DNA from: Octopus vulgaris
Taxonomy: Eukaryota
Assembly (NCBI GenBank): GCA_951406725.2
Contig: OX597836.1
Location: 48,174,001-48,238,000 of the forward strand
Length of the DNA: 64,000 nucleotides
Reading direction: 5' to 3'
The notes beneath the pieces are model-generated. The model had not been told where the DNA came from. It saw nothing but the letters and a program-made list of their open reading frames with translations, and did no database searches. The position numbers and the translations under genes were made by a program. Numbering within the stretch: the stretch's first letter is position 1; every line of letters starts with the position of its first letter. Below are positions 33,701 through 36,342 of the stretch, one piece after another.

Positions 33701-36309
33701 TGTCTGGGGAAAGTCGACTGGCCCCCATGCCGGTGGCACGTAAAAAGCAGCATTCGAGTTACCAGTGTCGCCTTACATGAAAAACAACATTTGAGCAAGA
33801 TCACTGCCTGTGCCGCTGGACTGGCTCCTGTGCAGGTGACACGTAAAAGCACCATTTGAGCATGGACGTTGCCAGTACTGCCTGACTGGCCCTTGTGTAA
33901 AAGCACCCAATGCACTCTCAGAGTGGTTGGGTTAGGAAGGGCATCCAGCAGTAGAAGCTCTGCCAGATCAGATTAGCGCCTGGTGCAGCCATCTGGCTTG
34001 CCAGTTCCCAGTCAAACTGCCCAACCCATGCCAGCATGGAAAGCGGACATTAAACGATGATGATATATATATATATATATAAGACAAGATGTGTGTGTGT
34101 GCGTGTGTACGTGATTGTAGTTTATGCACATTCACAAATTAGCACGCATGTCGCTCAAATTTTAGGACATTCGTCAACACCCAATCTGGGTTTTGTCAAC
34201 TTATTTTTCTCCCGAGGCACCTGCGGATAGCTTTTAGCCATAAAAAATATCAGCCATAGCTTTTTTGACAGCGTCTAACAAAAAAAGAAAAGAAAGAAAG
34301 GTGGATGAGGGGCAGAGAGTTTCATGGGAAAGACAAAGTGAGAGAGGGAGAGAGAAAGTGACAACGTTCATAAAAAATAAAATGTTTTGTTTTTGAAAGA
34401 CACTATATTTTATAATCATAGTATATATACTTTCTCACAATCATTTATTTTAAATCGTTCATCTTTCTCCCCCCCTCTCTCTCTCACACACACACTACTT
34501 TGGGTGCGAAAGAGTTTTGCTTTTATTTTATGCTGAGTAAAAATGTGTTTTGTTGAGAATCCATTTATTTAACAACAAAGAAACAAAGAGGTAGGTAACA
34601 ATTTGTCAGTGAATTACACAATATAAATAGGTACAATTTCCGAGGCTTCCACCACACCCCACTCTGTTTCACAGACCACAAAAATGGTTTTGTAGCATAT
34701 TACGATGCCTTACTTTTTTTTTTAGTGAAAATCGTGCGAGTGTTAATCTACAAATTTAACAACATTTTTTCCATTCATTTCTGTTTATGAACATGTATGC
34801 ATGCACACAACATGCAATAGGTGTACGTACGTATGTGTGGTGTATGTGTGTTCGTATCTGTTGCCCAAATATATTTATATATGTATAATATAACCAATTT
34901 TAACGGATTTCACCCAAATTTGACGTCAATATTAGTTTGGTTTGAAATAAAGAACTTGATTAGCTTAATAATCATAACTTAATCCCAGGTTATACTGCTA
35001 GTAATATATATATATATAAAGTTAATCCAAACAAGAAAACAAAAAGACAACAACGCAAGGATGTGGAACAAAGTATTATTGGACGCTCATAGAAGTATAA
35101 CCTGGCTTTGCCCAAGATTAACTTAGGATTATTAAGCTAATCAAGTTCCTTATTTCAAACCAAACTAAGTAAGGGCGAAAGCCATTGAAATTGGTTTATA
35201 TATATATAAATATATATATATAAATATATAGAAATTCGGGGTGAGTACTTGATAATTATAAGCACCTGTGTATACTGTTTGGTGGTGTAGGTGGTGGAGT
35301 AAATTGATCAAAATAAAATAAAAACATGATGCGAAGGATTCAGCGGTACATATGTTTCGGGCCTTTATTAGACAGATTTATAACAATGCATAATGTATGT
35401 CTGTGGCCTTCTTCAGCCGCACACAACAGCTTCCACAAGGACATGTGTTACATCAAAAATTCTTGGTTGGGGATGCAAATCCTCTCATTCACGTACGACA
35501 TAATGCGGCAGCAGCATAGAGTTGAAGCGTCCATCTCTTTCTTCTCTCAATGTAGAATGAGGAAACTTGGATGTTGAGGTAATGTAAATAAATAAATACA
35601 TATATAGAGGTGAAGATGGAGGGGCGAGAGTTCGGGACGAGGGATAAAAAATGTATAAAAAGTGTAAGTATAGAATAATATAAAAATGTAGAGGATAAAG
35701 ATATAAAGAGTTGTAAGGAGATGTAAAGGGGGTATAAAGAAATATAAAGAAATATAAAGAAACATTCTCTTACACTTTTATCATGTTTTTATCAGGTTTT
35801 TTTACTTTTATTTCTATTTCTATTTTTACTTTATAACCTTATGCCTTTACATTTCTTTATATTTCTTTATATTTCTTTATACCCCCTTTACATCTCCTTA
35901 CAACTCTTTATATCTTTATCCTCTACATTTTTATATTATTCTATACTTACACTTTTTATACATTTTTTATCCCTCGTCCCGAACTCTCGCCCCTCCATCT
36001 TCACCTCTATATATGTATTTATTTATTTACATTACCTCAACATCCAATCTTCCTCATTCTACATTGAGAAGAAAGAGATGGACGCTTCAACTCTATGCTG
36101 CTGCCACATTATGTCGTACGTGAATGAGAGGATTTGCATCCCCAACCAAGAATTTTTGATGTAACACATGTCCTTGTGGAAGCTGTTGTGCGCGGCTGAA
36201 GAAGGCCACAGACATACATTATGCATTGTTATAAATCTGTCTAATAAAGGCCCGAAACATATGTACCGCTGAATCCTTCGCATCATGTTTTTATTTTATT
36301 TTGATCAAT

Positions 36310-36342
<33 letters not shown>

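Follow-up and report, generated by a model that had tools for sequence, protein, structure and literature searches.

A probable Penelope-type insertion with hammerhead motifs in two head-to-head arms within a POT1 intron of Octopus vulgaris

The footprint left by insertions of Penelope-like elements (PLEs) and the occurrence of hammerhead ribozymes in opposite-strand pairs are already known (PMC4209133). PLE insertions have been described as comprising an inverted pLTR, an optional tail and a target-site duplication (TSD) of 8–10 bp (PMC3846280), and an inverted 5′-truncated copy, a tail at one end and a bias towards microsatellites have been reported by Craig et al. (10.1101/2021.04.23.441226). 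In the account given for the Anolis element, an AT-rich site is nicked, reverse transcription starts in A/C-rich sequence and the tail is the stretch between two reverse transcription starts; the hammerhead of this element is reported to cleave only with the element's protein and to be dispensable for insertion in vitro (PMC11167929). Opposite-strand pairs of PLE hammerheads lying 100–700 bp apart have been described in Schistosoma (Cervera & De la Pena 2014, PMC4209133). PLE hammerheads are described in the same work as having an extra base at 9/10.1 and a small palindromic helix III, the monomer being inactive and the dimer weak (PMC4209133). In cephalopods, 31 recently active PLE families have been reported for O. 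vulgaris (PMC13282606), and the giant squid genome paper gives 235 Rfam hammerhead-1 matches, as a count only.

The window considered here is a 64,000-nt stretch of the O. vulgaris genome (assembly GCA_951406725.2, contig OX597836.1, positions 48,174,001–48,238,000, forward strand), and all coordinates below refer to it. It very probably holds a single insertion in which an octopus repeat of very high abundance is present as two 5′-truncated copies arranged head to head, most likely placed there by a PLE enzyme; the hammerhead is predicted to have no activity within POT1 pre-mRNA. An initial annotation had described a near-perfect inverted repeat of about 460 bp with a hammerhead in each arm inside a POT1 intron, and the arms, the motifs and the host intron were all recovered. 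The host feature is as follows.

28567–37668, − strand: POT1 intron, about 9.1 kb, GT–AG, between exons 37947–37669 and 28566–28417

POT1 is encoded on the − strand: the POT1 proteins of O. vulgaris and O. sinensis match one exon at 100% in protein alignments and are placed exon by exon on this strand by protein-to-DNA mapping, and a Pfam search supports the POT1 exon with POT1PC and POT1. The upstream exon (37947–37669) is the end of the POT1PC (OB2) domain, and the insertion lies 1358 nt downstream of the donor of intron 37668–28567. The O. sinensis protein model includes the 150-nt exon at 28566–28417 (−), bounded by GT–AG, with a match of 98%, and the O. vulgaris model P0001 skips it and resumes near 27570; this difference reflects either alternative splicing or an annotation gap. 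The same intron contains a fragment of a Mariner (Mos1-type HTH_48) transposase at 30053–30382 (+), and an inter-alpha-trypsin inhibitor heavy chain-like gene with VWA and ITI_HC_C domains, convergent to POT1, has exons at 2075–11242 (+). The POT1 span has four inverted pairs that reach 100 nt in length and 80% identity, so intronic double-stranded RNA (dsRNA) is not peculiar to the hammerhead insertion (35231–36310), itself one of the four. Another of them, at 39678–39807 and 40488–40617 (130 nt, 99%, 681 nt apart), lies in a different POT1 intron and encloses SINE-like repeats.

The insertion and its flanks can be divided into the following parts.

35218–35230, + strand: putative TSD, left copy, 13 bp (12–14 by boundary choice), at the end of an AT microsatellite
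35231–35301, − strand: A/C-rich 3′ tail of the left copy, one-sided, 71 nt, with family contigs in all four aligned sequencing runs
35302–35762, − strand: left arm, an inverted 5′-truncated copy with a pLTR-like end and a T/C-rich upstream part, in the sense orientation of POT1
35762–35763, no strand: head-to-head 5′ inversion junction, microhomology about 1 nt
35763–35851, + strand: spacer of 89 nt, by which the right copy reaches further 5′ than the left, based on strand-switching contigs
35852–36310, + strand: right arm, a direct 5′-truncated copy that lacks a tail and ends in (AT)n; antisense to POT1, and the first of the arms to be transcribed
36311–36323, + strand: putative TSD, right copy, identical to 35218–35230 and followed by (AT)n

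The two arms align over 459 columns with four mismatches and one 2-nt indel. The interval 35302–36310 given initially thus holds for the arms but falls short of the full unit, which spans 35231–36310, reaches 71 nt further to the left and is flanked by a direct repeat. The flanking repeats are identical down to an AAA interruption, and a chance match over 12–14 bp is plausible in an AT microsatellite context, an empty site not having been seen. A or C occupies 48 of the 71 bases of the tail, the summed family depth of which is below that of the hammerhead region, and one 243-nt contig spans the tail into the arm. The tail, the strand-switch joints described below and the flanking repeat together lead us to read the unit as an inverted copy with its tail (532 nt) followed by a direct copy (549 nt), with the repeat on either side. 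The letter at 35521/36091 is common to both arms and is carried by only about 0.5–9% of family depth in sequencing runs X1, X3 and X4, which suggests that both arms were copied from a single source template. The arms differ at two adjacent bases (35565–35566/36048–36049); at 35566 the alternative letters occur within the family at about 44:56, despite the rare letter common to both arms elsewhere, and this difference could be a later mutation or come from a second template. At the rate implied by PMC13282606, arm divergence gives an age of about 1.2 Myr (0.3–3.1); the insertion thus looks young, and conversion between the arms could mask a greater age. Older nested inverted repeats surround the insertion (34932–34984/35116–35168, 94%; 34869–34915/35173–35219; 34787–34887 versus 36322–36409, 81–89%), and the site resembles a hotspot at which AT microsatellites have received insertions again and again.

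The repeat family was surveyed in contigs from public sequencing runs, four of the 24 listed runs being aligned to 35232–35860. The stretch, or part of it, was found in 20 of these 24 runs, from 10 studies and four organisms, and the run covering it best may be the assembly's own sample. None of the runs containing the stretch is recorded as RNA, and six runs presumed to be RNA contain 0.48–0.49 of the words. The four aligned runs gave 1744, 740, 695 and six aligned contigs; in three of them, summed depth over the hammerhead bins reached 5 × 10^4 to 1.1 × 10^6, with tens to about 1500 for copy-private letters, values that are depths and not copy numbers. The family is clearly very abundant, to judge from these contigs. 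Run X8 (organism D) yielded the six contigs, at a depth of 4–13 and, unlike the three other aligned runs, with sequence that differs from the window by a few percent at most; it could be a low-coverage library or come from a low-copy host. A zero-depth bin at 35589–35609 in three runs was attributed to a repeat artefact. Other family copies exit family sequence near 35315 into (AT)n. After running along the left arm, contigs of the family cross to the other strand on entering the spacer (joints 35753→35860 and 35758→35855), and the strand switch identifies the spacer as additional 5′ sequence of the right copy. One 366-nt contig from X8 joins 35512–35753 (+) to 35860–35762 (−), with the same joint in X1, and upstream of 35762 the family carries on with other sequence in three of the four runs. 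The literature searched contained no description of the octopus family, which the supplements of PMC4209133 or the repeat library of PMC13282606 may contain.

A Penelope-like origin, as proposed in the initial annotation, is supported by the truncated copies in head-to-head orientation, the one-sided tail, the short flanking repeat and the type-I hammerhead in the end. The expected parts of such an insertion are present: a hammerhead-bearing terminal repeat near the 3′ end, an inverted 5′-truncated copy joined head to head (with strand-switch joints, and upstream loose ends at 35762) and a tail confined to one end, that of the left copy. By analogy with the described systems, the insertion most likely represents an ordinary transposon footprint, behaving like that of an endonuclease-positive (EN+) PLE. 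We infer the enzyme and the order of events. A GIY-YIG endonuclease would have nicked the AT microsatellite, and reverse transcription would have begun at two alternative points near the RNA's 3′ terminus, yielding one copy with a tail and one without. Both copies would have terminated early and been joined at their 5′ ends, and repair would have duplicated 12–14 bp of the target. The hammerhead would belong to the element's own RNA, in which tandem copies or the element's protein may allow a dimer fold.

The alternative that survives best departs from this explanation in autonomy only: it is possible, if distinctly less likely, that the family is a non-autonomous PLE derivative devoid of open reading frames (ORFs), pLTR-only or retrozyme-like and mobilized in trans, the POT1 locus still being a silent one-off insertion. 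The family sequence upstream of the pLTR-like part is all low-complexity and T/C-rich, with no Pfam match, as would suit such a derivative, and metazoan retrozymes have themselves been proposed to be offspring of PLE pLTRs (10.64898/2026.07.22.740005; PMC7229834). Coding potential in the arms and tail was considered and rejected: these have no Pfam match, the ATG-started frame in the tail ends after 23 codons, no such frame runs the whole length of the tail, and about one third of family depth has a 5-nt deletion immediately upstream of it, which argues against coding. The longer open frames of the element also have no Pfam match. A linked PLE reverse transcriptase (RT) or GIY-YIG ORF, for which a search had been suggested, was found neither in the frames of the truncated copy nor through metagenome scans, the pattern scans with the hammerhead motif and a relaxed version of it returning 0 and 0 matches. 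The fall in family depth upstream is, however, what is expected from 5′ truncation, with low-complexity dropout contributing to it. A retrozyme-like derivative also fits poorly with the absence of a tandem unit, only two opposite-strand copies being found in the window; the family extends over more than 620 nt without internal repetition, as against 170–400 nt for described retrozymes (PMC7229834), and its helix I has 4 bp, as against 6 bp in canonical retrozyme hammerheads (PMC4209133).

Little weight can be given to the reading in which the whole foldback is a MITE-like DNA transposon, bounded by long terminal inverted repeats and carrying the hammerheads as passengers; this reading is now largely refuted. 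The near-perfect inverted arms, 459 bp long with a short spacer, would suit it, and the window also has a probable DNA transposon with long inverted ends, but family sequence goes on for 71 nt beyond one arm only, so that the arms do not form the termini, and the family contigs cross the centre in another way and extend upstream of 35762. Since these contigs depart from the insertion at its centre, the centre is a one-off junction. The probable DNA transposon elsewhere in the window is an element of about 4.5 kb at 53340–57884, with inverted ends of about 630 bp and 98% identity, which are unusually long terminal inverted repeats. Broken − strand frames within it (55710–54824) have weak, sub-cut-off matches to ISXO2/IS1595 transposases (E 0.04 and 0.01), and it is probably of the Merlin type.

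For the Penelope-like insertion, the hammerhead motifs of the two arms share an identical layout of 78 nt: GCGG / CUGAAGA / A-GGCC…GGCCC / GAAA / CAUAUG / UA / CCGC. Their features are as follows.

36192–36269, + strand: type-I hammerhead motif, C3 at 36196, predicted cleavage nucleotide A36265
36192–95/36266–69, + strand: helix I
36196–36202, + strand: core
36203, + strand: extra A
36204–07/36249–53, + strand: base of helix II
36254–57, + strand: GAAA
36257–36264, + strand: palindromic helix III octamer, 2 bp in the monomer and 8 bp in the dimer
35343–35420, − strand: type-I hammerhead motif in the sense orientation of POT1 pre-mRNA, with the predicted cut 3′ of A35347

The core C3-U-G-A-N-G-A9, G12-A-A-A15.1 and U16.1-H17 are present in this order, together with helices I–III. 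A strict minimal-hammerhead descriptor matches both arms, with two matches in the window and none in 60 order-2 Markov copies, a control that favours the motif, the descriptor having been composed once the motif was known. A looser scan returned eight rows in the window, six of which were rejected as chance-like, being lost under the strict descriptor. Curated models did not recover the motif: Rfam gave no hammerhead match for the window at the gathering threshold or for the element at E ≤ 10, the only hits at the latter threshold being composition-driven and far below threshold (snR86, Plasmodium RNase P and nuoG). Minimal PLE variants have been found with custom descriptors (PMC4209133), so this miss lowers only the case for membership of the curated family.

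Computed folds point to a hammerhead of the dimer type. The isolated 78-mer is not unusually stable relative to shuffled sequences (z = +0.28), helix III has a pairing probability of about 0.23 in the monomer, and helix I has no clean extension beyond 4 bp. Two sense copies co-fold as a swapped double hammerhead (−38.2 versus 2 × −13.2 kcal/mol), with the 8-bp helix III, and the hammerhead is thus predicted to need a dimer, as the initial annotation had supposed. Loop II has about 41 nt, with a possible interrupted extension of helix II, and contains AAUAAA. An A.C mismatch had been described at the base of stem II. The corresponding register is 3.4 kcal/mol more stable in the isolated fold than the literature-type register, which makes an I:C pair chemically possible for a free copy, but the A also fits the conserved extra base between 9 and 10.1 of PLE hammerheads (PMC4209133). 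A G10.1–C11.1 pair could form with an extra A and a bulged C, with a pair probability of 0.02, and helix II may adopt either register. In the four runs, the core and stems have no variants at a frequency of at least 4%. The three variable sites of the motif are all in loop II (3/41 versus 0/37 in core and stems, Fisher p = 0.24), one of the variants disrupting a pair of the predicted helix II extension, and the contrast with the rest of the end region is similar (0/37 versus 12/201, p = 0.22). No covariation of stems I and II was found among family contigs in the four runs, the invariance of the stems leaving none to count. The AATAAA of loop II (36243–36248, +; 35369–35364, −) lies 17 nt upstream of the predicted cut. 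The intron contains 14 POT1-sense AATAAA hexamers, six of which are inside the insertion and all within the foldback region; intronic polyadenylation at these six was considered, and their use is without support.

The order of the arms and the strand of POT1 confirm that the − copy is sense in the pre-mRNA and that its antisense arm is transcribed first. The sense arm would therefore zip into a duplex of about 460 bp, which would be removed with the spliced intron. The foldback has a minimum free energy of −832 kcal/mol, and forcing the hammerhead to form in the nascent prefix costs a predicted 126–130 kcal/mol, in agreement with the masking initially proposed. As the hairpin zips from its centre, about 340 bp of duplex would already be present when the sense hammerhead emerges. 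The motifs are not a working pair: because they occupy opposite strands, a given transcript has a single sense hammerhead, together with its antisense. These folds are equilibrium predictions and ignore proteins.

A state of the ribozyme regulated by co-transcriptional folding or editing, as had also been envisaged, is implausible given the pre-formed duplex of about 340 bp and the outcome of simulated editing, which spoils the core first. Editing was simulated with A-to-G changes as a proxy for inosine, in 100 trials per rate. G.U pairs are somewhat stronger than I.U pairs, so this proxy favours the duplex. The 78-nt duplex was favoured by 37–116 kcal/mol at every rate, and the six adenosines of the core and cleavage site were intact in 49 of 100 trials at 10% editing, in 10 at 30% and in 2 at 50%. 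Core adenosines are thus lost while the duplex holds, and editing would spoil the ribozyme before freeing the hammerhead. Palindromic repeats have been described as hyper-edited, and octopus edits heavily (PMC5625713; PMC9989829); by analogy, the duplex would be a likely substrate for hyper-editing by ADAR, and clustered A-to-I editing across the foldback is likely.

A functional alternative, that of a POT1 switch, seems scarcely credible: the muted sense hammerhead would be freed by editing, a helicase or a PLE protein and would cut the intron as a dimer with family RNA, tuning POT1 output. It draws on the intact core, invariant at the 4% level in the four runs, on the favourable dimer fold of free sense copies, on the thousands of family copies from which partner RNA could come and on the protein-assisted cleavage described for a PLE hammerhead (PMC11167929). 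The duplex is nonetheless ahead by about 126 kcal/mol, simulated editing ruins the core before opening it, each transcript has a single sense copy and the insertion looks young. In addition, minimal PLE hammerheads are described as weak even as dimers (PMC4209133), and the reported Anolis RNA-seq has no reads terminating at the cut site (PMC11167929). The consequences of cleavage are themselves variable, a faster HDV ribozyme in an intron having stopped splicing (Fong 2009, cited in PMC2995048), whereas cutting by an intronic hammerhead left splicing intact (Dye 2006, cited in PMC2995048), and by analogy even a cleaved POT1 intron need not affect splicing. Nothing connects the insertion with POT1 function; it has the usual PLE footprint, and POT1 introns hold other inverted pairs. 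Likewise most improbable is a mirror-gated hammerhead: a helicase, ADAR or a telomerase-related PLE protein would open the duplex, and a trans dimer with abundant family RNA would cut the intron just past the OB2 exon, tying POT1 output to the activity of the retroelement, with 5′ inversion letting sense PLE ribozymes survive in introns. The exclusion of retrozymes from introns, reported in a preprint (10.64898/2026.07.22.740005), leaves room for muting as a selective filter. A long hairpin is predicted to trap both hammerheads, which are therefore likely to be silent by-products and not a switch of the gene.

If the explanation by a Penelope-type insertion is correct, the locus itself matters little, as one of very many such footprints, and helps to account for the long dsRNA and heavy editing of octopus pre-mRNAs; a switch would instead make it a retroelement ribozyme regulating a shelterin gene. 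The family provides a test bed for two questions: whether a single template gave rise to both halves of the mirror, as the rare letter common to both arms bears on, and whether inverted copies are over-represented among sense intronic insertions through muting of the ribozyme.

Among described systems, the insertion most resembles those of EN+ PLEs, such as Pen2/Pen2a of Adineta vaga (PMC3846280; Craig et al., 10.1101/2021.04.23.441226), with which it shares head-to-head truncation, a tail at one end, a putative short duplication, a microsatellite target and a terminal-repeat hammerhead. It differs from the published cases in the length of the tail (71 nt versus 30–40 nt) and from Pen2/Pen2a in that of the flanking repeat (12–14 bp versus 8–10 bp, PMC3846280), and the octopus copy has no ORF, nor was a linked RT or endonuclease found for the family in the frames and metagenome scans examined. 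With the minimal type-I hammerheads of PLEs (PMC4209133), it shares a 4-bp helix I, an extra nucleotide after A9, a possible G10.1–C11.1 pair with a helix II bulge and a dimer-type fold, with a small palindromic helix III as in the D. virilis, shrimp and mosquito variant. The octopus motif differs from the hammerheads described there in its long loop II with AAUAAA and in the register preferred by the isolated fold, where A and C do not pair at the helix II base, and its cut sites are 918 bp apart, as against 100–700 bp in the published opposite-strand pairs (PMC4209133). PAc, the Poseidon PLE of Anolis, similarly has an AT-rich target, an A/C-rich region past the hammerhead and two alternative 3′ ends; its ORF begins in helix II (PMC11167929), whereas the octopus element has no ATG-started frame open through the tail. 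Metazoan non-LTR retrozymes (PMC7229834; 10.64898/2026.07.22.740005) are likewise non-coding, PLE-related and present in high copy number, with a type-I hammerhead, but the octopus family has no head-to-tail tandem, its unit exceeds 400 nt and its hammerhead is non-canonical. The foldback also resembles the hyper-edited palindromic repeats described for Xenopus Harbinger and lizard Penelope elements (PMC5625713), with its predicted editing and a long, near-perfect pre-mRNA duplex in a heavily editing animal group.
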